From NCBI GenBank assembly GCA_944383905.1, contig CALWRI010000003.1:48845-112844 (forward strand): a stretch of 64,000 nucleotides of DNA, given 5' to 3'. The position numbers and the translations under genes are program-made. Position 1 is the stretch's first letter. Every line of letters starts with the position of its first letter. A model generated the notes under the pieces. It was not told the DNA's origin. It saw only the letters and a program-made list of their open reading frames with translations, and ran no database searches. Positions 18,754 to 43,268 of the stretch are shown piece after piece. This DNA comes from an uncultured Christensenellaceae bacterium (GTDB taxonomy: Bacteria > Bacillota > Clostridia > Christensenellales > UBA3700).

Positions 18754-18930
18754 AAGTGCACAACGTCAGTCGCAAATTGTCTGAAATGATGGTAGTTTTT
18801 CAAGCTCCGAATTTTTTTTACGCATATACGCGCATTTTTTTGTATATAATATAGTTTTTGCAGTTTTCCGCTTGAAAAAATCTTTTCTATATTGTATCAT
18901 ATTGTTGTAATTTACAACAGGAGGTTTGAT

Positions 18931-21600
18931 ATGACAAAATATGTCTATTTGTTCAAAGAAGCCGACGGCGATAATAAGGCGTTGTTCGGCGGAAAAGGTG
19001 CCAACCTTGCAAAGATGACGAGTTGGGGCATGCCGGTTCCGGAAGGCTTCACCATCACCACCGAGGCTTGTACCAAATATTACGACGACGGAGAGAAAAT
19101 CTCGGACGACGTCATCGATCAGATTTTCGACGCCCTCGCTAAAGTCGAAAAAGAGGCGGGCAAGAAATTCGGCGATGAGGAAAATCCGTTCCTCGTATCC
19201 GTTCGTTCGGGCGCGAGAGCGTCGATGCCGGGCATGATGGATACCATCCTCAACCTCGGTCTCAACGACATCTCCGTCAAGGGTCTTGCGAGAAAGACCG
19301 GCAATCCGCGTTTCGCTTACGACTGCTACCGCAGATTTATACAGATGTTCTCCGACGTCGTTATGGGTTCCCCCAAGAGCTCCTTCGAAAAGATCATTGA
19401 CGAGCTCAAACACGAGAAAGGCGTCGTTCAGGATACGGAGCTTACCGCAGAAGACCTGCAGGAGCTCATCGCTAAATTCAAGAGATTCTACAAAGAGGAT
19501 CAGGGAGACGATTTCCCGCAGGATCCCAAGGTTCAGCTCATCGAAGCCGTCAAGGCGGTTTTCCGCAGCTGGAACAACCCGCGCGCTATCGTATACCGTC
19601 GTATGAACGATATCCCCGGCAGCTGGGGTACCGCTGTCAACGTCCAGTCGATGGTTTTCGGCAATATGGGCGACACCTCCGGCACCGGCGTTGCGTTTAC
19701 CCGTGACCCGTCTACCGGCGAAAAGAGACTTTACGGCGAATATCTGATGAACGCACAGGGCGAAGACGTCGTCGCAGGTATCCGTACCCCGATGAAGATC
19801 GACCAGCTCAAAGAGAGCAACAAAGCGGTTTACGACCAGTTTGTAAAGATCGCAAACCGTCTCGAGCAGGAAAACAAGGATATGCAGGATATGGAGTTCA
19901 CCATCGAACAGGGCAAGCTCTATATGCTCCAGACCAGAAACGGCAAGAGAACGGCGAGAGCTGCGATCAAGATCGCTTGCGACCTCGTCGACGAAGGCAT
20001 GATCACCAAGCAGGAAGCTCTCCTCAAAATCGAGCCCAAGCAGCTCGACGCGCTCCTGCATCCGACCTTCGATCCCGCTACCCTGAAGAAGGTAAAAGAG
20101 ATCTCCAGCGGTCTCCCGGCATCCCCCGGCGCGGCTTGCGGCAAGATCTCATTCAGCGCGGAAGAAGCTGTTGAGAGAGCGAAGAACGGCGAAAAGGTCG
20201 TCCTCGTCAGACTCGAGACCTCTCCCGAGGATATCGAAGGTATGTATGCCGCAGAAGGCGTACTGACCGCGAGAGGCGGCATGACCTCCCACGCGGCGGT
20301 CGTTGCGAGAGGTATGGGCGCGTGCTGCGTTGCGGGTTGCCCCGACCTCAAGATCGACGAAGAGAAAAAGTTGCTTTACATCAACGGCAAGAAGTTCACG
20401 ACAGAGGATTATCTCTCGCTGGACGGCTCTACCGGTAAGATCTACGCGGAGAAACTCCCGACCCAGCAGGCTACCGTTACCGGCGACTTTGCAAAGATTA
20501 TGGATTGGGCAGACCTCAACCGCGCTTTGCAGGTCCGCACCAACGCGGATACTCCTCACGACGCAGAAGTAGCCGTCGGCTTCGGAGCGGAAGGCATCGG
20601 CCTTTGCCGTACCGAGCATATGTTCTTCGCCGAAGACAGGATTCCCGCGGTCAGAGAGATGATCGTTTCCAAGACGGAGACCGAACGCCGCAGAGCACTC
20701 GACAAGCTCCTGCCTATGCAGAGAAGCGACTTCGAAGGCCTCTACAAGGCTTTGAAGGGCAGACCCGTTACCATCCGTTTCCTGGATCCGCCGCTCCACG
20801 AGTTCGTACCGCACAAGGACGAGGAGATAGCAGATCTCGCAAAGACGATGGGTCTCACTTTCGAAGAGCTCAAGCAGACCGTTGAGAACCTGCACGAATT
20901 CAACCCGATGATGGGTCACAGAGGCTGTCGTCTCAGCGTTACCTATCCCGAGATCGCGGAGATGCAGACCAGAGCGGTCATCGAAGCGGCAATCAACGTA
21001 AGCAAGAGCGAAGGCTTCAGCGTTATCCCCGAGATAATGATCCCGCTTGTCGGCGAAGTCAAAGAGCTCAAGTACGTCAAAGACGTCGTCGTGGCTACCG
21101 CAGAGAAGGTCCTCAAAGAGAACAACACCGCTATGGAATATCACATCGGCACGATGATCGAGATCCCGAGAGCGGCTCTCACCGCAGACGAGATCGCGAA
21201 AGAGGCGGAGTTCTTCTCCTTCGGTACCAACGACCTGACCCAGATGACCTACGGCTTCTCGCGTGACGATGCAGGCAAGTTCCTCAACGACTATTACGCA
21301 AAGAAGATATTCGAGTCCGATCCGTTTGCGAAACTCGACCAGGTGGGCGTCGGCAGACTCATGCAGATCGCTATCGCAGGCGGCAAGAAGACCAGACCCA
21401 ATATCAAGCTGGGTATATGCGGCGAACACGGCGGCGATCCGTCGACCATCGAATTCTGCCACAACATCGGTCTGACTTACGTTTCCTGCTCGCCCTTCCG
21501 CGTACCGATCGCAAGACTTGCGGCTGCACAGGCTAATATCCTGAACCCGAGAGTCAAGAAGACCAACGCAGACGGCACCAGATACATTCAGGAAAACTGA
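18931..21600 (+). CDS. ppdK: Pyruvate, phosphate dikinase
   Basis: MTKYVYLF...GGKGANLAEM-like N-terminus, phospho-His loop TARGGMTSHAAVVARG, and C-terminal GICGEHGGDP. An AGGAGG ribosome-binding site precedes ATG 18931. Confidence 0.95.
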   Translation: MTKYVYLFKEADGDNKALFGGKGANLAKMTSWGMPVPEGFTITTEACTKYYDDGEKISDDVIDQIFDALAKVEKEAGKKFGDEENPFLVSVRSGARASMPGMMDTILNLGLNDISVKGLARKTGNPRFAYDCYRRFIQMFSDVVMGSPKSSFEKIIDELKHEKGVVQDTELTAEDLQELIAKFKRFYKEDQGDDFPQDPKVQLIEAVKAVFRSWNNPRAIVYRRMNDIPGSWGTAVNVQSMVFGNMGDTSGTGVAFTRDPSTGEKRLYGEYLMNAQGEDVVAGIRTPMKIDQLKESNKAVYDQFVKIANRLEQENKDMQDMEFTIEQGKLYMLQTRNGKRTARAAIKIACDLVDEGMITKQEALLKIEPKQLDALLHPTFDPATLKKVKEISSGLPASPGAACGKISFSAEEAVERAKNGEKVVLVRLETSPEDIEGMYAAEGVLTARGGMTSHAAVVARGMGACCVAGCPDLKIDEEKKLLYINGKKFTTEDYLSLDGSTGKIYAEKLPTQQATVTGDFAKIMDWADLNRALQVRTNADTPHDAEVAVGFGAEGIGLCRTEHMFFAEDRIPAVREMIVSKTETERRRALDKLLPMQRSDFEGLYKALKGRPVTIRFLDPPLHEFVPHKDEEIADLAKTMGLTFEELKQTVENLHEFNPMMGHRGCRLSVTYPEIAEMQTRAVIEAAINVSKSEGFSVIPEIMIPLVGEVKELKYVKDVVVATAEKVLKENNTAMEYHIGTMIEIPRAALTADEIAKEAEFFSFGTNDLTQMTYGFSRDDAGKFLNDYYAKKIFESDPFAKLDQVGVGRLMQIAIAGGKKTRPNIKLGICGEHGGDPSTIEFCHNIGLTYVSCSPFRVPIARLAAAQANILNPRVKKTNADGTRYIQEN

Positions 21601-21661
21601 TAACGTCAAAACAAAACGAGACCGTCGCCCGAAAGGGCGGCGCAAGGTGAAAAACGCGATA

Positions 21662-21697
21662 AACGGCATAATCTTTCGTGGTTATGCCGTTTTTTTA
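21662..21697 (+). terminator. Intrinsic terminator after ppdK
   Basis: 10-bp stem AACGGCATAA ... TTATGCCGTT followed by a T7 run. Confidence 0.8.
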
Positions 21698-23153: not shown

Positions 23154-23216
23154 AAAACGGCGGGCAGACGCGCCCGTTGAAAGACGCTCTCGGAAAAGGG
23201 CGTATTTTATTGCCAG

Positions 23217-23250
23217 ATTGTAAACTTGTTTTGTCAATTCGGTTTACAAT
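23217..23250. promoter_or_regulatory. BirA (biotin repressor) operator overlapping a -35-like TTTACA
   Basis: Perfect 9-bp inverted repeat ATTGTAAAC-N16-GTTTACAAT, about 40 nt upstream of the bioY-bioB ORF. It matches the TGTAAAC...GTTTACA architecture of known bio operators. TTTACA-N17-TAATAT follows. Confidence 0.75.
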
Positions 23251-23289
23251 CACGCGCAGATATGATAATATTGTCTGCGGAGACAAGTT

Positions 23290-24819
23290 ATGGCAAAAAT
23301 GCGTTTGCAATCAAGGGAAAGATTGAAAAAACTTATGTTGACGGCGACGTTCACCGCGCTGATAACGGTGGGAGCGTTCATAAAGATACCTATCATGACG
23401 GTGCCGTTTACGATGCAGTTTCTGTTCTGCAATCTGGCGGGCATATTGCTCGGCGCAAAATACGGCACGCTCGCCGTGGCGCTTTATCTCGCGCTCGGAC
23501 TGTCCGGGGTGCCGCTGTTTACGGGCGGAGGCGGGATAGGATACGTCTTTCAACCCACGTTCGGTTGCCTGATCGGGTTCGCGGTCGGGGCTATGGTCGC
23601 AGCGCTGATATGTTCGCGCGGCAGATATTCGTATCCGCGCATGATCGCGGCGGGCGTTGTCAACGTGTTCATCGTCTATTCTCTCGGAATGATATATTAC
23701 GCGCTGATGATGAAATACTATTTCGGCACGCCGAAGGAAGCGGGATGGATAATCGTCAACTTCTGTCTGATTTTCCTGCCGATGGATTTCGTATGGTGCG
23801 CGGTTTCCGCCGTCGTCGCCAAGCGGGTATTGCCGCTCCTTTACAAGAACGATCCGGAAAAGATGCTTCGCATAAGCACGTTGTACGAGTTGAAATGCAA
23901 GGTTCTGAACGGCGGCGAGATCACATACAAAGAGGCGAAAAGGCTGAAATACGTTTCGCTCGGAGCCCTGTGCGCGGCGGCGGACGAAATAAGGGAGCGG
24001 TTTTGCAAAGACGCGTTCGACCTGTGCGCGATAGTCAACGCAAAGAGCGGCGGATGCGGCGAAGACTGCAAGTTCTGCGCGCAGTCGGCGCATTACGGCA
24101 GCAAGGAGAGGGGAGAACTGATAAGCAGCGAAGAATACGACAGAGCGTATGCGGCGGCGGAGAGCGCGGGAGTAGCGGCGCTCGGAGCGGTCACGGCGGG
24201 ACGCGCGCTTTCGGACGCGGAGATCGACGCGGCGTGCAGACTTTACAAGGCGCACGAAGGCGGCAAGGTAGAAAGGTGCGTATCTCACGGACTTCTTTCC
24301 GAGAAGCAGATAAAAAGGCTGAAAGACAGCGGCGTAACGCGCCTGCACAATAATCTCGAGACCTGCGAAGGATATTTTCATAAAGTGTGCACAACGCACA
24401 CGCACGCGCAAAAACTGCAAACGGTTCGCGCCGCGAAAGAAGCGGGATTGAAGGTTTGCAGCGGCGGCATAATAGGTCTCGGAGAGAGCATGAACGACAG
24501 GATAAAACTTGCTTTCGAATTGAGAAACGAGGGCGTTTTCTCTGTGCCGATAAACATACTCGACCCACGCAAAGGCACGCCTTGCGAAAACGCGAAACCT
24601 ATTTCTTACGACGAGATCAGGCGTACCGTGGCGATATTCAGATTTATATTGCCTGACGTCTTCATAAGACTCGCGGCGGGCAGACGCGAACTTTCCGACA
24701 AGGGCGAAAAGCTGTTCAGGGGCGGAGCGAACGCGGCGATAACCGGAGACTTTCTGACCGTCAAGGGCGTGTCGGTCAATGACGACGTAGTATGTTTTCA
24801 GAGAAAAAATTCAAGATAG
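23290..24819 (+). CDS. bioB: Fusion protein: BioY biotin-transporter S-component (N-terminal) plus biotin synthase BioB (C-terminal)
   Basis: A single 509-codon ORF. Residues about 1-185 are hydrophobic and BioY-like (FTMQFLFCNLAGILLG, GGGGIGYVFQPTFGCLIGF). Residues about 190-509 carry radical-SAM CGEDCKFC, LKVCSGGIIGLGES and IRLAAGRR. A BirA operator lies upstream. Confidence 0.85.
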   Translation: MAKMRLQSRERLKKLMLTATFTALITVGAFIKIPIMTVPFTMQFLFCNLAGILLGAKYGTLAVALYLALGLSGVPLFTGGGGIGYVFQPTFGCLIGFAVGAMVAALICSRGRYSYPRMIAAGVVNVFIVYSLGMIYYALMMKYYFGTPKEAGWIIVNFCLIFLPMDFVWCAVSAVVAKRVLPLLYKNDPEKMLRISTLYELKCKVLNGGEITYKEAKRLKYVSLGALCAAADEIRERFCKDAFDLCAIVNAKSGGCGEDCKFCAQSAHYGSKERGELISSEEYDRAYAAAESAGVAALGAVTAGRALSDAEIDAACRLYKAHEGGKVERCVSHGLLSEKQIKRLKDSGVTRLHNNLETCEGYFHKVCTTHTHAQKLQTVRAAKEAGLKVCSGGIIGLGESMNDRIKLAFELRNEGVFSVPINILDPRKGTPCENAKPISYDEIRRTVAIFRFILPDVFIRLAAGRRELSDKGEKLFRGGANAAITGDFLTVKGVSVNDDVVCFQRKNSR

Positions 24820-25082
24820 ACGACGGGTTTTGCGGTTTTGACATCGTATTTTATTGCGCTTTGACGGACGAGTCCCGTAAAGTCTGTATTGAAAAAATAA
24901 CAGACTTAACAAAACAATTATAAAAAATACGGGGAGTCAGAGACGACGGCGTCATACTCGATATGTGAAGTTCTATGGCGTTTCTGCGACGGCGTGATTT
25001 TCGTTGCCAACGATCGCGCTTGCCGTTGGCGTGTTTTATACTGTTGTTTACTTGGTAAAAACAAAATAACCGTCGGATTTTA

Positions 25083-25111
25083 TGCGGACCATTAAAGGTC
25101 CGCAATTTTTA
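25083..25111 (+). terminator. Orphan intrinsic terminator in the bioB-galU gap
   Basis: TGCGGACC-attaaa-GGTCCGCA followed by ATTTTTA. It lies about 265 nt after the bioB stop, with no convincing ORF in between. Confidence 0.6.
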
Positions 25112-25206
25112 TAAATCATATAACTTTATTTACAAAACGCATAAAATATAGTATAGTAAAAATATAGAAGGATTCCGCATTGCAGATGCGGTAAAAAGGA
25201 AGGATT

Positions 25207-32962: not shown

Positions 32963-34960
32963 ATGAATCGATCGGTAAAAGTTAATTCCAATACGGTAAA
33001 AGAAACCGTCGCCGGGATCGTGTTTTTCCTGGCGGCGTGTTTCGCCGTATTGTCGGTAGCCGCGATAATCGGCTATCTTTTATATGCGGGCGTGCCCGCG
33101 TTCAGAGAAATAGGCGTATTCAATTTTCTGTTCGGCACGACGTGGTCGCCCGGTTATTCGGGACCCGCATCGGAGAAATTCGGCATACTCCCGATGATAG
33201 TAGGTTCGACTATCGCCACGGGAGGCGCGTTGCTTTTCGGCGGTACGCTCGGCATAGCGGTTGCGGTATTCAACGTTTATTTCTGTCCTGAGAAACTCAA
33301 GATGCCGCTTACGCAGCTTATCAGCGTACTTGCAGGTATTCCCAGCGTTATTTACGGATATTTCGGCTTAAAACAGATCGTTCCCGCACTCGCGGCGATA
33401 AGTCCGAGCGGTAACGGTACGGGTATACTCGCGGTTTCTCTCGTACTCGGCATAATGATTCTTCCCACAGTGGCAAGTCTTGCAAAAGACGCATTGTCGG
33501 CTGTGCCCGAGGCTTATTACGAAGGAGCGCTCGCGCTCGGACTCACCAAGGAACAGAGCGTGTTCAAAGTTCTCGTCCCTTCGGCTAAATCGGGCATAAT
33601 GACGGCTTTGGGGCTCGGCATAGGCAGAGCGGTCGGAGAAACGATGGCAGTCATCATGGTCGCGGGCAATACGGTGCAGTTCCCTAAAGGTCTTTTCGAC
33701 GGCTTTATGACGCTTACGGGCAATATCGTTATGGATATGTCCTATGCGTCCGGAGTACACAGAAGCGCGCTTGTAGCGACGGGTTTCGTTCTGCTCATAT
33801 TCATACTCTTGCTCAACGGTATACTGTACGCAGTCAAGAGCGGCGGAAAAGGCGGAGAAAAGAAAAAGTTCCGTTTTTCTGTCAGCGGCAGCGAAGACGT
33901 TACGTCAAAAGGCAAAACGCGTTCCGCTGCGGGCAGAAAACTGTATGCGGCAAGAGTGAAGACGGCAGGCGCGTTGAATAAATGCATAGATGCGGTATCA
34001 TGTGCCTGTTCGAAAGTAAAGTCGGCTTTTTCGACAGCGTTTGAAAAAATATCGTTTGCTTTCGGCAAGGTCCGCTCAAAGATCTTCGGCACAGGAAAGG
34101 ACGAGAACGGCGACGTCGTTTACAGAACAAGGACGTTCTTTTACACTTTGCTCAAATGGCTGTGTTTCGCGGGCGCGGCGATAATGATCGCGGCGATCGC
34201 ATATCTTATCGGATTTATAGTAGTAAAAGGCGTTCAGGCGTTTATCGTGATAGGCTTTACTGACTTTTTATTCGGAAAAGCGGGAGCAGGCAAAAACTCT
34301 CTCGCGCCCGCTTTCGTAAGTACGGGCGCTCTTATCGGGATCGCGCTTGCGATAGCGTTGCCGATGGGAATATGCGCGGCGATATATCTCGTCGAATATT
34401 CAAAGAGCGGAAGCAGAGCTGTCAGGATAATACGTCTTTTTACGGATACGCTCTCGGGCATACCGAGCATAGTGTTCGGTCTTTTCGGCGTAATAGTTTT
34501 TAACGACGCGTTCGGGCTCGGATACAGCCTGATGTCGGGCGGACTCACGTTGTCGATAATGATACTTCCGACGATAGTTAGGTCGGTGGAGGAAAGTCTG
34601 ATAAACGTTCCGCTTGCATACAGAGAGGCGAGTTACGCTCTGGGTGCGGGCAAAATACACACTATCGGCAAAGTAGTTCTGCCGTGTGCTCTAAAAGGAA
34701 TTCTTACGGCTACGGTACTCAGTATCGGCCGTATAGTAAGCGAATCCGCCGCGCTTTTGCTCACCGCGGGTTCGGTAAAGAATATGCCGAGAAACGTGAT
34801 GTCGCCCGGCAGCAGTTTTGCGGTAATGATGTACATGTTCGCAAGCGAGGGACTTTACATGAACGAGGCATACGCTACCGCGCTCGTACTCATAGTGCTC
34901 GTAGTAGTTATAAACGCGCTCGTATTCGCGATAAGACCCAAAAAGGAGAAAAAAGCATGA
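32963..34960 (+). CDS. pstCA: Fused phosphate ABC transporter permease PstC-PstA
   Basis: 665 aa containing two complete permease modules. Each has an EAA-type loop (...[26 protein letters not shown]... and ...[26 protein letters not shown]...). A Lys/Ser-rich linker of about 100 aa joins them. Confidence 0.85.
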
Positions 34961-40250: not shown

Positions 40251-43200
40251 ATGAAGAAAGCGGCTTTGACGATATTGATGATTCTTGTTGCGTGCGTGTT
40301 CGTCTTCGTATCCTGCGATACGAAGGACGACGTCACATACTATCAGGAGACCGTAGTCGGAAAATACGGCGACGGTATAAGTCTTATCGGCACCGTCACT
40401 CCGCAGGGAGAGATCTCGGAGTATGCCGATCTCCCGAGGGTGGAGAAAGCCGTATGCTTCGACACTCGTCTCGAAGGTTGGCATTTCTGCGGCGTTTACG
40501 TCGTCAGGGGAGAAAAGATAACCGTCACGTTGCCGGAAGAAAAGGCGGACGGTTCCGTCGTGGCGACGGTGGGCAGATACGAGGCTTCCGCGAACGCGTA
40601 CAGCGTGCCTCTCGACGAGCCGACGGTCACGTTCGAGTCTCCTGTCTCGGGACTTCTCGAAGTGGATCTCGGCGATTGTTACGGCGACGAATTCTGGACT
40701 CTTACCGTTTCGGGAGGGGTTGCCGCTTCGTATTTCAGACTCGGTCTTGACAGGGTCGCAGATTGGAAGAACAGCGCCGGATACGCCGTGGTGGACGCAA
40801 CGAACGTCAGGATATACCTGCCCGCGCAATACATCGACTCCGCCGACGACGTCGCGAAAGCGGCAAGCTGGTGGCGTTCGTTCTGCGAATACGCGGACGG
40901 TTACACGACAGGGATATTCGGGGAGGACAAACTTTCTCCGACGGATATTTACGTCGGCGGCAACGTCTCGCAAATAAGTTACGACAAAGAAAAAGACGTC
41001 CTTTTCCTGCCTTCGGACCTCGCGTCGGTCATGCTCGACGCAGAGGCGTTATCGCACGGCGCGGCGTGGGACGCGATGCTCGGTTTCTGCAAAGGCAAGG
41101 CGCTTTATGCCGGATTTGACGCGGCGGACGAAGTCGCGCAGATAATAGCGGCGGGCGCGTTCGTCACTCTGACGGACAGCGTGCTCGGCACGGATTCGGG
41201 CGACGAATATTGGATAAACAACGCTTACGACTGTCTCCGCCGCAGTCTCGCGGGCGAGCTGTCTGAATACGGAGATCTCGCGGTGTACGTCAACCTGATC
41301 CATTCTTTCGGAGAGAAAGAGGTTGCGGAAACAGCGGTCGGATATGCCGTACTTGAAGATGAGGACGGCTCGGAAGCAGAAGAAAAACCCTCTCTCGCGC
41401 AGTATTTCTGCAATACGTTTGCGCAAAAGGGGATAGATCTTGAGCCGTATATGAACGGGATTTTCGGACTCTCCGTCGAACAGACATTGTCTGATGCAAC
41501 CGTGTACGTCCCCGTGCAGAGCGCGTATGCGATCGGCGCGTCGGCGGGAGAGGACAAGACAGGCGTCACGGTCAATTCGGGAGAGAGGGTCGGATTCGAT
41601 TTTGCGGGCGCGGTCGTGACATCGGCGGAAAAAGTCGAGCTCGTCGAGGTCAGGCTCGGAGACAAGGAATGGAAGGCTGGCGAAGGCGGACTTTACGAAT
41701 ACAAACCCGTCGCCGACGTGAAGGAACAGAACTTCACCCTCGTATTCGAAGCGGACGGCGTGAAGACGGAACTGCATGGCAGGTTTACCTGCAACGTCGC
41801 GGTATCCGTGTTTTCGAGATACGAAAACGTGCCGTGGAGAGACATGAAGACCGCAGTCAAGGAATACGGGGAAAGCGGAGACAAATATCTCGTCTCGTCG
41901 AGCGCCGTTTTCAAGGCGGAAGTGCCCCAGAACGACGAAGTGGACGACGGCGTGTATACGTTCAGCGTCAACAACGGCGTGATACAGGTCGATGAGACCG
42001 CGACTTACGTCGTATACGTCAGGAGCAAGGGCATGACGCGCGTGGATTTCGGCGTGCCGCAGTATATGTTCACGATGTTTGAAAACACGCTCACCGTCAA
42101 CGAGTATACCGATCTTTTGTGTTATGAGATAGAGTTGCAGGAGGGGGTGTCCTACTATTACGACATCTATATCCTCGCGACGAAAGGCAACGCCTACGCG
42201 TGCCTCGGCATAAGCAAGAAGGGAGAGCAGACGATAGAGGACGTCGACGACGGATATCTCGTCTATTATCCGTTCGACCGCGACGATATTCAGACCTATT
42301 CCGCGCCCGAGCTCGTTCCGCAGAGTTTCGGGGTCAGCAGAGAGGGCGGGAAGAATTTTGAAGATCTCGGCACAAAACTCGTCGCTTATCCCAAAGCGGA
42401 ACAGGGATCATCGGCAGGAGCCGCGTGCGACGGCAACGACGACACATATTTTACTTCAAAGCCGGCTTTGACTCACACTTACGTCTATGAATTCGACGAG
42501 GCGGTGCAGGCGGATTATCTGATACTCCGGACGAACAATTCAGGCGTCGGTTTCGAACTGGCTGTCAGCGAAGACGGGACGGATTATACCGTATGCGACG
42601 ACGGGATCCTCAACAAGAATATCAACCGTACCTTCGTCAAACCCGTTGCTATAAAATACGTCCGACTGACGATGACGTCCGACGTAGAATTCGCAAGCGT
42701 CGTGAAAGATATTTACTGCGGAGTTTACACAAAAGAGGCGACGATCGTGCCTTCGAACAGCAGCAGGGTGCTTTATCAGGGCAAATGGCAGTACAAGACG
42801 GGCGGTATCAGCGTAAACGGCTGGATACTCGAAAGTTACGGCGACGACGCGGCGATTGAGTTCAACTTTTACGGCACGGCGATCTCGATCTATTGCGCAA
42901 CGGGCGACGTCTACGGAAGTATGCAGATATACGCAGACGGCAAGCAGTGCGGTCTCGTTGATCTGTACAGCCGTTCTACTCAATACAACCGCAACGTGTT
43001 TTCGATAGATTTCAACACGGCGGCGAAACACACGATAAGAATAGTTCCTTCTTCCAACGACGACATAATAAACCTCGATTATTTCTCGGTCGTATACGCG
43101 GAGCAGCACGAGGCGACGCCCGAAGTGGGCAATTTGTGGTATTTTGCGATAATCCCCGCGGCATTGGCGGCTGTCTTTGCGGTCTGCGCCGCGCTCGACA

Positions 43201-43268
43201 TCTCGGAAAGGCGCAAGAAAAAGCGCAAGAAGCAGACGGCGGACGTAAATGCCGACAAGCAAGAATAA
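40251..43268 (+). CDS. Large cell-surface protein: lipoprotein signal, M60-like module lacking HEXXH, PA14-like and F5/8 type C (discoidin)-like domains, C-terminal transmembrane anchor
   Basis: 1005 aa with N-terminal ...LVACVFVFVSC. The discoidin-like stretch is ...AACDGNDDTYFTS...YVRLTMTS... The C-terminus is LWYFAIIPAALAAVFAVCAALDI followed by RRKKKRKKQ. Domain names come from pattern recognition only. Confidence 0.6.
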   Translation: MKKAALTILMILVACVFVFVSCDTKDDVTYYQETVVGKYGDGISLIGTVTPQGEISEYADLPRVEKAVCFDTRLEGWHFCGVYVVRGEKITVTLPEEKADGSVVATVGRYEASANAYSVPLDEPTVTFESPVSGLLEVDLGDCYGDEFWTLTVSGGVAASYFRLGLDRVADWKNSAGYAVVDATNVRIYLPAQYIDSADDVAKAASWWRSFCEYADGYTTGIFGEDKLSPTDIYVGGNVSQISYDKEKDVLFLPSDLASVMLDAEALSHGAAWDAMLGFCKGKALYAGFDAADEVAQIIAAGAFVTLTDSVLGTDSGDEYWINNAYDCLRRSLAGELSEYGDLAVYVNLIHSFGEKEVAETAVGYAVLEDEDGSEAEEKPSLAQYFCNTFAQKGIDLEPYMNGIFGLSVEQTLSDATVYVPVQSAYAIGASAGEDKTGVTVNSGERVGFDFAGAVVTSAEKVELVEVRLGDKEWKAGEGGLYEYKPVADVKEQNFTLVFEADGVKTELHGRFTCNVAVSVFSRYENVPWRDMKTAVKEYGESGDKYLVSSSAVFKAEVPQNDEVDDGVYTFSVNNGVIQVDETATYVVYVRSKGMTRVDFGVPQYMFTMFENTLTVNEYTDLLCYEIELQEGVSYYYDIYILATKGNAYACLGISKKGEQTIEDVDDGYLVYYPFDRDDIQTYSAPELVPQSFGVSREGGKNFEDLGTKLVAYPKAEQGSSAGAACDGNDDTYFTSKPALTHTYVYEFDEAVQADYLILRTNNSGVGFELAVSEDGTDYTVCDDGILNKNINRTFVKPVAIKYVRLTMTSDVEFASVVKDIYCGVYTKEATIVPSNSSRVLYQGKWQYKTGGISVNGWILESYGDDAAIEFNFYGTAISIYCATGDVYGSMQIYADGKQCGLVDLYSRSTQYNRNVFSIDFNTAAKHTIRIVPSSNDDIINLDYFSVVYAEQHEATPEVGNLWYFAIIPAALAAVFAVCAALDISERRKKKRKKQTADVNADKQE

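Follow-up and report, generated by a model that had tools for sequence, protein, structure and literature searches.

Unfused bioYB cassettes, in which the biotin transporter component BioY and biotin synthase BioB are made as two polypeptides from co-transcribed genes, are found in Christensenella hongkongensis, Pumilibacter muris and other Clostridia under a biotin-responsive repressor; Paracoccus denitrificans likewise has a bioYB operon, regulated by BioR, that pairs the two functions in this order (PMC4554459). Taken singly, the closest described proteins are BioY of Lactococcus lactis (PDB 4DVE), a group II ECF S-component, and the Type II BioB enzymes of Blautia obeum (8VCW) and Veillonella parvula (8VDW) (PMC10813225). 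At the pathway level, a biotin-auxotroph, dethiobiotin-salvage variant called A1 ("BioB + BirA only") consists of BioB without bioA/D/F neighbours plus BioY, encoded by separate genes, and BioY was proposed from this co-occurrence as the dethiobiotin carrier (Rodionov et al. 2019, PMC6593275). In gut and marine communities dethiobiotin is exchanged as a vitamer, and bacteria possessing BioB only can live on it. Its rescue of such bacteria has been documented, with the transporter unidentified there and the route by which it enters cells stated as unknown (PMC9561691).

In the 64 kb stretch of DNA analysed here (the window), the two functions share a single gene. The ORF listing contained one ATG-initiated frame at 23290..24819 (+), with 509 codons plus stop and neither a stop nor a frame change inside; compared with the unfused cassettes, the stop codon between the genes is gone and the product is one 509-aa membrane protein. 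The original prediction had read this frame as an N-terminal BioY joined to a C-terminal BioB, and profile searches agreed with it on every part: residues 36-180 matched Pfam BioY PF02632 (108.5 bits, cutoff 25), residues 253-408 Radical_SAM (72.6 bits), residues 420-506 BATS (74.7 bits) and residues 212-505 the NCBIfam bioB equivalog TIGR00433 (331.9 bits against a cutoff of 225). All the peptide motifs that it had cited were present in the translation, whereas its use of E. coli as an example of an organism with a separate bioY was mistaken, YigM being used there instead. The AF2 model of the protein (pLDDT 85.8, pTM 0.80) superposed with Foldseek on solved structures of both BioY and BioB, and full-length homologues share the same architecture. 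This architecture and the integrity of both active parts indicate that its product is a genuine bifunctional membrane protein, as judged from the sequence.

The BioY half (residues 1-184, 23290..23841, + strand) is recognisable as a six-helix ECF S-component by Pfam, phmmer, AF2 and Foldseek; six long helices were counted, and the AF2 model has helices at residues 2-30, 43-71, 91-109, 115-144 and 151-184. It is about 26% identical to L. lactis BioY (4dve; phmmer E=1e-9, Foldseek TM 0.76) but, unlike that protein, bears a 320-aa enzyme at its cytoplasmic C-terminus. Its motifs include helix-1 A19xxxA23, LLGAKYGT and GVPLFTGGGG, and D166 is invariant. In the alignment with L. lactis BioY, A19-TFT-A23 falls on A-FMT-A, and the AxxxA motif, which in helix 1 of S-components serves docking to EcfT (PMC11109136), was kept in 27/28 and 30/31 fusions. 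S-components have cytoplasmic N- and C-termini and have to topple in the membrane (PMC4820897); since BioB is placed in the cytoplasm, a C-in topology of the BioY half is required. This was the more constrained of the two halves, with dN/dS of 0.07-0.12.

The BioB half (residues 197-509, 23878..24816, + strand) is predicted from TIGR00433, PDB matches and Foldseek to be a radical-SAM biotin synthase resembling the Type II enzymes of anaerobes. The B. obeum and V. parvula enzymes are the closest to it in sequence and structure: its best PDB matches were 8vcw and 8vdw (246 and 239 bits), against 145 bits for the E. coli enzyme (1r30), and it superposed on solved BioB with a Foldseek TM of 0.89. 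C256-GED-C260-KF-C263 (24055-24078) forms the CxxxCxxC radical-SAM cluster motif, invariant in 31 fusions. Following the ligand definitions given for Type II BioB and its auxiliary 4Fe-5S cluster (PMC10813225), equivalents of B. obeum BioB C52, C138, C198, Ser140, His161 and Arg268 were found as the auxiliary-cluster cysteines C246, C330 and C390 and the further key residues S332, H353 and R465, in columns that were likewise invariant across the 31 fusions. The serine that defines Type II, at the position of E. coli Cys97 (B. obeum Ser106), is present in 28/31 fusions, and the window protein has Gly299 (..AALGAVTAG..) in its place; enzymes with glycine there are termed "Type G", and the study that set up the types could not tell how they hold the cluster (PMC10813225). 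The window enzyme thus differs from the B. obeum and V. parvula proteins in having Gly299 for Ser106 and in being tethered to the membrane through its N-terminal BioY. The dN/dS of this half was 0.11-0.22, and both halves are under purifying selection (dN/dS about 0.1-0.2).

The junction, delimited by the fusion alignment and the secondary structure of the model, comprises residues 185-196 (YKNDPEKMLRIS; 23842..23877, + strand), with a 4-residue break after helix 6 in the AF2 model, followed by the N-terminal helices of BioB. The linker is about 10 residues long in the window protein and variable in sequence among fusions, and one member (P0032) has a low-complexity linker of about 190 aa in the fusion alignment, which speaks against a need for strict geometry. 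At the site that corresponds to the junction, the closest unfused relatives carry either an ATGA overlap or TGA followed by a Shine-Dalgarno sequence and ATG. Met192 (23863-23865) is most likely a relic of the BioB start codon, being conserved in 14/14 members of the clade to which the window belongs; a Met is absent at this place from other fused clades.

Upstream of the gene, the perfect BirA palindrome over the -35 that had been predicted was exact in the sequence. The putative operator is an inverted repeat, ATTGTAAAC-N16-GTTTACAAT, at 23217..23250 (halves 23217-23225 and 23242-23250), and no second copy was found in the window even at 3 mismatches, for which 0.21 matches are expected by chance; the observed one has none. 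Its 8-nt half-sites, TTGTAAAC / GTTTACAA, are identical to those of E. coli bioO (TTGTAAACC-N16-GGTTTACAA), and a promoter is overlapped in both; the spacer between them measures 16 nt in the window operator and 18 nt in bioO, and bioO controls the divergent bioA / bioBFCD genes whereas the window site would control a transporter-enzyme fusion. Perfect half-sites with unrelated spacers stood upstream of 7/7 clade orthologues, and the operator was found in 11/13 fused loci and in 7/12 unfused loci of the bioY>bioB order. A bioO-type inverted repeat that overlaps the promoter and is conserved upstream of orthologues is what characterises a member of the regulon of a Group II BirA repressor. The promoter-like site (23243..23271, + strand, by consensus scan) has its -35 TTTACA (23243-23248) inside the right operator half-site, a 17-nt spacer and a TG-extended -10 TAATAT (23266-23271), with 9/12 consensus matches plus TG; because this -35 is covered by the operator, the gene would be switched on when biotin is scarce. 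A Shine-Dalgarno sequence, GGAGA, was read at 23279..23283 (+), 6 nt before the ATG.

A consensus scan also delimited the transcript. A terminator-like hairpin with a T-run at 23184..23203 (+), after the upstream dinB-like gene (Pfam IMS/IMS_C; stop 23153), would set the fusion gene apart from upstream transcription. On the other side, a hairpin of 8 bp (6 GC) with a T-run at 25083..25104 (+), in the 387-nt gap before a galU-like gene, probably ends a monocistronic transcript. A second, weaker hairpin lies at 25015-25033, and Rfam gave no matches over the whole window, including this downstream gap.

The BioY-BioB fusion is rare yet recurrent. About 34 protein clusters at 40-100% identity, from independent assemblies, bear it, and it is present in 9 GTDB species representatives; cluster 1 alone has 13 members with identical or near-identical 509-aa proteins on contigs of up to 142 kb. 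Among 1.84 billion representatives of clusters at 50% identity, only 4 full-length clusters have it. Orthologues at 63-76% identity preserve the reading frame, with synonymous sites saturated. Outside the window's clade, a 505-aa protein of Pumilibacter intestinalis named "biotin synthase BioB" (WP_338052330.1) has BioY, Radical_SAM and BATS domains, is about 48% identical and has a BirA operator upstream; it differs in stemming from an independent fusion event, in heading a bioYB-bioD-bioA operon next to birA and in having Ser at the type-defining position. Matches by tblastn that covered residues 1-500 in many genomes were rejected as fusions, as ORF/HMM classification resolved them mostly into adjacent genes, often in the bioB>bioY order with a distant BioY.

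Unfused neighbours are widespread. In dozens of Clostridia bioY and bioB are adjacent in either order, about 40 species have such pairs, in both orders, without other bio genes, and C. hongkongensis and P. muris still keep the two genes separate. The clostridial unfused bioYB cassettes share with the fusion the BioY subfamily, the BirA operator and translational coupling. A single origin of the fusion was rejected: the fused state was monophyletic in 0/100 bootstraps, a minimum of 3 state changes was needed, and switches between fused and unfused occur within genera and families. The phylogeny and the junction sites of unfused relatives suggest that the fusion arose at least three times through stop-codon loss between translationally coupled bioY and bioB.

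Consistently with the original prediction, neither bioA, bioD, bioF nor bioW was detected in the 64 kb window, and birA and ecf genes were not found in it either, by Pfam on about 50 large ORFs and by phmmer on ORFs of at least 90 aa with BioD, BioA, BirA and EcfA/A'/T as queries. Two ORFs, at 18766-20061(-) and 20149-21669(-), run antisense to the gene for pyruvate phosphate dikinase (18892-21600, + strand) and were discarded as its shadows. In the window's clade (the window and L007-L014), the flanks, covering 6-8 kb around 7 orthologous loci, had no bioD, bioA or birA, which fits the A1 variant; the window differs from that variant in having the fusion, as seen in one 64 kb window, and the supplement of the A1 study (PMC6593275) had no Christensenella biotin phenotype entries. 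In P. intestinalis and its relatives, the fusion heads a bioYB-bioD-bioA operon adjoining birA, so that dethiobiotin would be made inside those cells. A gene with HTH_11 and BPL_LplA_LipB domains adjoins the fusion in relatives, and in one fused relative (L001) an ecfA-ecfA'-ecfT-truA cluster lies 8 kb from it.

We consider it somewhat probable (roughly 55%) that the gene specifies a bifunctional scavenging fusion that arose from a bioYB cassette and imports dethiobiotin for its own tethered BioB. The translationally coupled bioY and bioB genes, a cassette for biotin vitamers common in Clostridia, would have been joined by loss of the stop codon. The lone-gene transcript, from a promoter whose -35 lies under the BirA operator, would be on when biotin is scarce and would yield a BioY half of six helices, N-in and C-in, followed by a linker of about ten residues and a cytoplasmic Type II-like BioB. 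The BioY half would take biotin and presumably also sulfur-free dethiobiotin from the gut surroundings, a shared EcfAA'T module may serve inward delivery, and the tethered BioB would turn dethiobiotin into biotin at the membrane. Fusion would thereby set a 1:1 stoichiometry and co-localisation, and tethering might bring a kinetic advantage; we also infer that the source organism lacks bioA, bioD and bioF genome-wide. Several observations count against this mechanism: the fusion also heads operons that make dethiobiotin intracellularly, the state switches repeatedly and sister species manage with separate genes, the linker of P0032 runs to about 190 aa, neither an ecf nor a birA gene lies within the window, Gly299 stands where Type II has Ser, and a short-tethered, dimeric BioB might hinder toppling of the S-component. 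BioB of E. coli is a dimer.

The original prediction had also suggested that tethering could couple uptake of a precursor such as dethiobiotin to its immediate conversion. The functional link between BioY and BioB is borne out by gene adjacency, translational coupling and at least three fusions. The proposal is supported in part: the bioD-bioA operons, the switching between states and the linker of about 190 aa mean that the fusion is not needed for the pathway and that tight channelling is not implied. A dedicated dethiobiotin-salvage machine, in which the BioY half would have dethiobiotin as a physiological substrate and release it at the opening of the BioB barrel tethered to it, for conversion before it diffuses away, and in which a BioB-driven pair of BioY halves may work without an ECF module, seems rather improbable to us.

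The fused state may instead be a frozen accident, a near-neutral by-product of stop-codon loss between overlapping genes, in which BioY imports biotin only, dethiobiotin comes by another route or bioA/bioD lie elsewhere, and the tether adds nothing beyond the 1:1 co-expression already provided by translational coupling; we hold this to be a possible explanation, with a clear minority chance. The genes already overlap by ATGA in unfused sister taxa, at least 3 independent changes of state fall within genera and families, bioYB-bioD-bioA operons carry the fusion too, the short linker varies in sequence and reaches about 190 aa in P0032, and the fusion is rare among BioB clusters. Moreover, since the state flips and sister species thrive with separate genes, the fusion itself may be nearly neutral. 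Against this reading, the fused state has been kept across a whole clade whose members are down to 63-76% identity and whose synonymous sites are saturated, it recurs in several lineages, and the fact that about 40 species pair bioY with bioB, in both orders and with no other bio genes, is hard to explain without a linked function. Quite unlikely, in our judgement, is a non-transporting BioY half that acts as an anchor or dimer scaffold for BioB, or a BioB dimer that templates an ECF-free BioY dimer: some BioY proteins do import biotin on their own, with no ECF module (cited in PMC11109136; PMC7478625), 5TMR sensor kinases are S-component folds joined to cytoplasmic domains (PMC11109136) and the window has no ecf genes, but selection constrains the BioY half more strongly than the BioB half (dN/dS about 0.1), the loops of the BioY half still show the motifs conserved in its family, it retains the AxxxA docking motif, which S-fold proteins that do not transport no longer have, and a fused relative has an ecfAA'T cluster.

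Two further readings concern the integrity of the product. Initiation at Met192 within the same ORF could still give free BioB beside the fusion, and this Met, present throughout the clade, falls exactly at the BioB start of unfused relatives. We nevertheless regard internal initiation as very improbable, because no Shine-Dalgarno sequence precedes Met192 in 8 clade members (the best AGGAGG match was 3-4/6 and misplaced) and because Met is missing at that site in the other fused clades. That a frameshift or a stop missed in assembly or sequencing joined two ordinary genes, a worry voiced with the original prediction, is almost certainly wrong: the same 509-aa product recurs on many independent contigs, orthologues preserve the frame, as do 34 clusters, 9 species representatives and isolate genomes (P. 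intestinalis, RefSeq WP_338052330.1), and purifying selection runs across the junction.

Returning to the scavenging fusion that we favour, a recurrent, selectively maintained fusion together with widespread coupled bioY-bioB pairs is Rosetta-stone evidence tying the transporter to the enzyme, and it offers a single-gene construct for testing BioY as a dethiobiotin importer. It also poses a question for the ECF mechanism, namely whether an S-component, which has to topple, can still do so with a 36-kDa Fe-S enzyme attached through a tether of ten residues. Should the salvage machine prove true, it would give ECF S-components a first transporter-enzyme "metabolon in one polypeptide" and would identify the long-unknown dethiobiotin importer.

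The literature searched, which is not exhaustive, held no description of a BioY-BioB fusion and only unfused bioYB operons, and a survey of the S-component fold (PMC11109136) did not mention one. Judging from these papers, the fusion is a previously undescribed variant of the two-gene biotin-scavenging cassette, which itself is common. In databases, RefSeq names the fusion proteins "BioB" only, an earlier call of the P. intestinalis protein was cut to 330 aa, and in one MAG the fusion gene was annotated as split partial BioY and BioB. Because annotation omits the BioY half, the vitamin-transport capacity of Christensenellaceae-like gut bacteria is under-called.

As the original prediction held, BioY and BioB are encoded in one uninterrupted frame. 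The ORF listing of the window gives a single ATG-started ORF of 509 codons at 23290-24819 (+), with a ribosome-binding site (GGAGA, read from the sequence, same strand) directly ahead of it. The Pfam matches are BioY (residues 36-180, 108.5 bits), Radical_SAM (residues 253-408) and BATS (residues 420-506), and TIGR00433, the NCBIfam biotin-synthase equivalog, is matched at 331.9 bits, its cutoff being 225. Everything described at first reading (ORF, domains, and palindrome over the -35) is present in the window.

The possibility of an assembly-joined frameshift, raised in the original prediction, was tested by homologues and selection, and both a frameshift and a chimeric join are excluded. 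The full-length query retrieved 34 clusters (90% identity; from assemblies in ENA, NCBI, Logan and JGI) that share all three domains in this arrangement and are 40-100% identical, before the next matches, ordinary 320-aa BioB proteins at ~53% identity. The cluster to which the window protein belongs counts 13 members, with contigs reaching 142 kb, and in the alignment the junction is kept in register across fusions. In the window's clade (the window and the orthologous loci of close relatives), dN/dS was 0.07-0.12 for BioY and 0.11-0.22 for BioB, with purifying selection covering both halves and the junction.

It had also been considered that the fusion might prove common and already characterised; it is rare, and public databases do contain it, under the name BioB only. 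An exhaustive search of 1.84 billion 50%-identity representatives, using a profile of 17 divergent fusions, found full-length fusions in only four clusters (P0016, P0158, P0033, P0159), besides some fragments, versus 1,676 BioB-like clusters (E<1e-30). Loci retrieved from GTDB species representatives were sorted by ORF/HMM classification into three groups. True fusions occur in nine genomes: Ca. Ornithoclostridium faecavium, six uncultured Christensenellaceae that match the window at 72-76% identity and share its gene order (Era-RecO-PPDK-DinB-fusion-GalU-CtsR), a MAG of an uncultured Clostridia member, and the isolate Pumilibacter intestinalis. In twelve, including Christensenella hongkongensis and Pumilibacter muris, the two are separate genes in the order bioY>bioB, with a BioY of the same subfamily; in ~31 Lachnospiraceae and Oscillospiraceae the order is bioB>bioY and the BioY is more distant. 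The P. intestinalis fusion is named only 'biotin synthase BioB' in RefSeq, an older, truncated call has just 330 aa, and in one MAG the annotation breaks the fusion into a partial BioY and a partial BioB.

The fusion does not amount to a new type of system, and its parts (BioY, Type II-like BioB, BirA operator, bioYB operons, and the dethiobiotin-salvage idea) are already known; an unfused bioYB operon has been reported, for example, in Paracoccus (PMC4554459). A literature search across 8 million full texts, in which absence is not proof, found no published description of a BioY-BioB fusion, and neither the Type II BioB paper (PMC10813225) nor the S-component fold survey (PMC11109136) mentions it. 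Further BioB fusions appeared among the 50%-identity representatives, outside the window (P0199, 534 aa; P0173, 607 aa; P0180/P0188/P0259, 765-953 aa): one joins a CbiQ/EcfT-like membrane domain to BioB (PF02361, 28 bits), one a class-I SAM methyltransferase, possibly BioC-like, and several a class-III, BioA-like aminotransferase. With the EcfT-like fusion, BioB would be linked a second time to a component of ECF transporters.

Both halves are intact. The BioY half aligns to L. lactis BioY (4dve), shares its signatures LLGxKYGT, GxPxxTGGxGG and FxPxD, and has the helix-1 AxxxA in register (A19-TFT-A23 vs A-FMT-A). This motif, the EcfT docking site that is lost in S-fold proteins no longer transporting (PMC11109136), is retained in essentially all fusions. 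Since S-component C-termini are cytoplasmic (PMC4820897), the BioB half would be placed in the cytoplasm. Its best structural matches are 8vcw (246 bits) and 8vdw (239 bits), versus 145 for E. coli 1r30; the former two are Type II enzymes of anaerobes whose structures contain an auxiliary 4Fe-5S cluster. Equivalents of Cys52, Cys138, Ser140, His161, Cys198 and Arg268 (ligand definitions from PMC10813225) are retained, the first five being invariant across fusions and the last present in 30/31. At the type-defining position (E. coli Cys97, Type II Ser106), where Type I has Cys and Type II Ser, the window has Gly299 (codon 24184-24186), as do P0004 and P0033, and Ser is found in the remaining 28 of 31 fusions. 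By its residue the window BioB is thus assigned to 'Type G', an uncharacterised class (PMC10813225). An AlphaFold2 model built from 31 fusions was confident (pLDDT 85.8, pTM 0.80) and runs from helix 6 (residues 151-184) through a four-residue break into the N-terminal helices of BioB; the model's only disordered part is the radical-SAM cluster loop, as expected without cofactor. The modelled halves superpose on 8vdw/8vcw (TM 0.89) and 4dve (TM 0.76); comparison of the model with solved structures found none spanning both.

The proposed BirA operator over the -35 was borne out. The palindrome ATTGTAAAC-N16-GTTTACAAT lies at 23217-23250, occurs once in the 64 kb even with three mismatches allowed, and with its right arm overlaps the -35 of a promoter-like site that has a TG-extended -10. 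Its 8-nt half-sites are identical to those of the E. coli bioA-bioB intergenic region, TTGTAAACC-N16-GGTTTACAA. All seven clade orthologues carry perfect half-sites upstream with completely different 16-nt spacers, which in this comparison is a clean phylogenetic footprint. A predicted operator lies upstream in 11/13 fused, 7/12 unfused bioY>bioB and 15/31 bioB>bioY loci, whose other regions contain essentially none; a Group II birA (HTH_11 + BPL) adjoins the cassette in relatives. Regulation of the fusion gene by BirA through the predicted operator is therefore well supported comparatively. In nine relatives' loci (L001, L005, L015, L016, L020, L021, L023, L024, L027), the birA/bioY intergenic region holds two predicted operators, one at the promoter-region -35 and the other over the bioY ribosome-binding site and start codon, suggesting that the divergent birA and bio transcripts are under dual control.

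The route to fusion is visible in the unfused relatives, where the stop of bioY and the start of bioB overlap (TTATGA) and the Shine-Dalgarno lies inside the bioY 3' end. In C. hongkongensis HKU16 (L017 6549-6582), bioY and bioB are in-frame, parted by a TGA and an 8-nt spacer in which the bioB Shine-Dalgarno lies (GGAGAAAAC ATG), and by sequence the pair is one point mutation away from fusion. Met192 (23863-23865) is kept in 14/14 clade members exactly at the bioB start site of unfused relatives, and no Shine-Dalgarno precedes it in any clade member examined; it is thus most likely a relic BioB start codon. In NJ trees of concatenated domains (100 bootstraps), the window's clade was monophyletic in 100/100 replicates, a separate Pumilibacter-type fused clade was sister to an unfused clade in 100/100, and the fused state was monophyletic in 0/100. 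Fitch parsimony required at least 3 fused/unfused changes (median 5), so that, on these trees, the translationally coupled pair has fused repeatedly. The main rival to the scavenging reading given below is that overlapping genes became fused by accident, with almost no selective effect. Tethering BioB to BioY may be beneficial.

Obligatory channelling from BioY to BioB is argued against by the repeated fused/unfused changes, by fused bioYB-bioD-bioA operons, in which dethiobiotin is made inside the cell, and by a ~190-aa linker in P0032. This BioY-BioB fusion (825 aa, on a 4.6-kb JGI metagenome contig) carries its low-complexity, repeat-rich linker (..KDKENESGRETS.. units) exactly at the BioY/BioB junction, and so shows that tether length is under no strict constraint. 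In the Pumilibacter-type clade and most unfused relatives, birA is divergent from bioY(-)bioB-bioD-bioA, and at L001 an ecfA-ecfA'-ecfT-truA cluster lies 8 kb from the fusion. The window's clade, C. hongkongensis and all bioB>bioY pairs have only bioY and bioB locally; consistently with the prediction that bioA and bioD were not visible, a phmmer screen of all ORFs of the 64-kb window found no BioD, BioA, BirA or Ecf proteins, and bioF, bioA and bioD may be absent genome-wide in this organism. Gut genomes with 'BioB + BirA only' have been classed as dethiobiotin salvagers, and BioY occurs in 87% of genomes with incomplete biotin pathways, leading the authors to suggest that it may carry dethiobiotin (PMC6593275); BioB-only marine bacteria grow on dethiobiotin by an uptake route described as 'presently unknown' (PMC9561691). 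This framework fits the window's locus, and we therefore read the gene as what would be a BirA-repressed, one-polypeptide form of the bioY-bioB vitamer-scavenging cassette, whose BioY half may take dethiobiotin as substrate and may depend on ECF partners. As a Rosetta-stone pointer to the dethiobiotin importer the fusion is useful, and it poses a small puzzle for how ECF S-components topple.

Within the window, the fusion gene lies between unrelated dinB-like polymerase (upstream) and galU-like nucleotidyltransferase (downstream) genes and is flanked on both sides by hairpins with T-runs, and so looks monocistronic. The 387-nt non-coding gap before the galU-like gene (24820-25206) holds terminator-like hairpins at 25015-25033 and 25083-25104 and a promoter-like site at 25129-25157, and matched no Rfam family. 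By Pfam scan, ~50 large ORFs encode the housekeeping functions of a Firmicute that forms spores (YqfD, PhoH, Era, RecO, PPDK, CtsR-McsB-ClpC, Pst-PhoU, HrcA-GrpE-DnaK-DnaJ, PriA). In this GC-rich sequence a long ORF need not be a gene: 18766-20061(-) and 20149-21669(-) (431 and 506 aa, without Pfam matches) were rejected as antisense shadows of the PPDK gene at 18892-21600(+). A 665-aa ORF at 32963-34960 has two BPD_transp_1 stretches, is flanked by a phosphate-binding-protein-like gene on one side and PstB/PhoU-like genes on the other, and resembles a PstC-PstA permease fusion; a 1005-aa ORF at 40251-43268, annotated solely by a weak F5/8 type C (discoidin) domain match, is possibly a surface or carbohydrate-binding protein.
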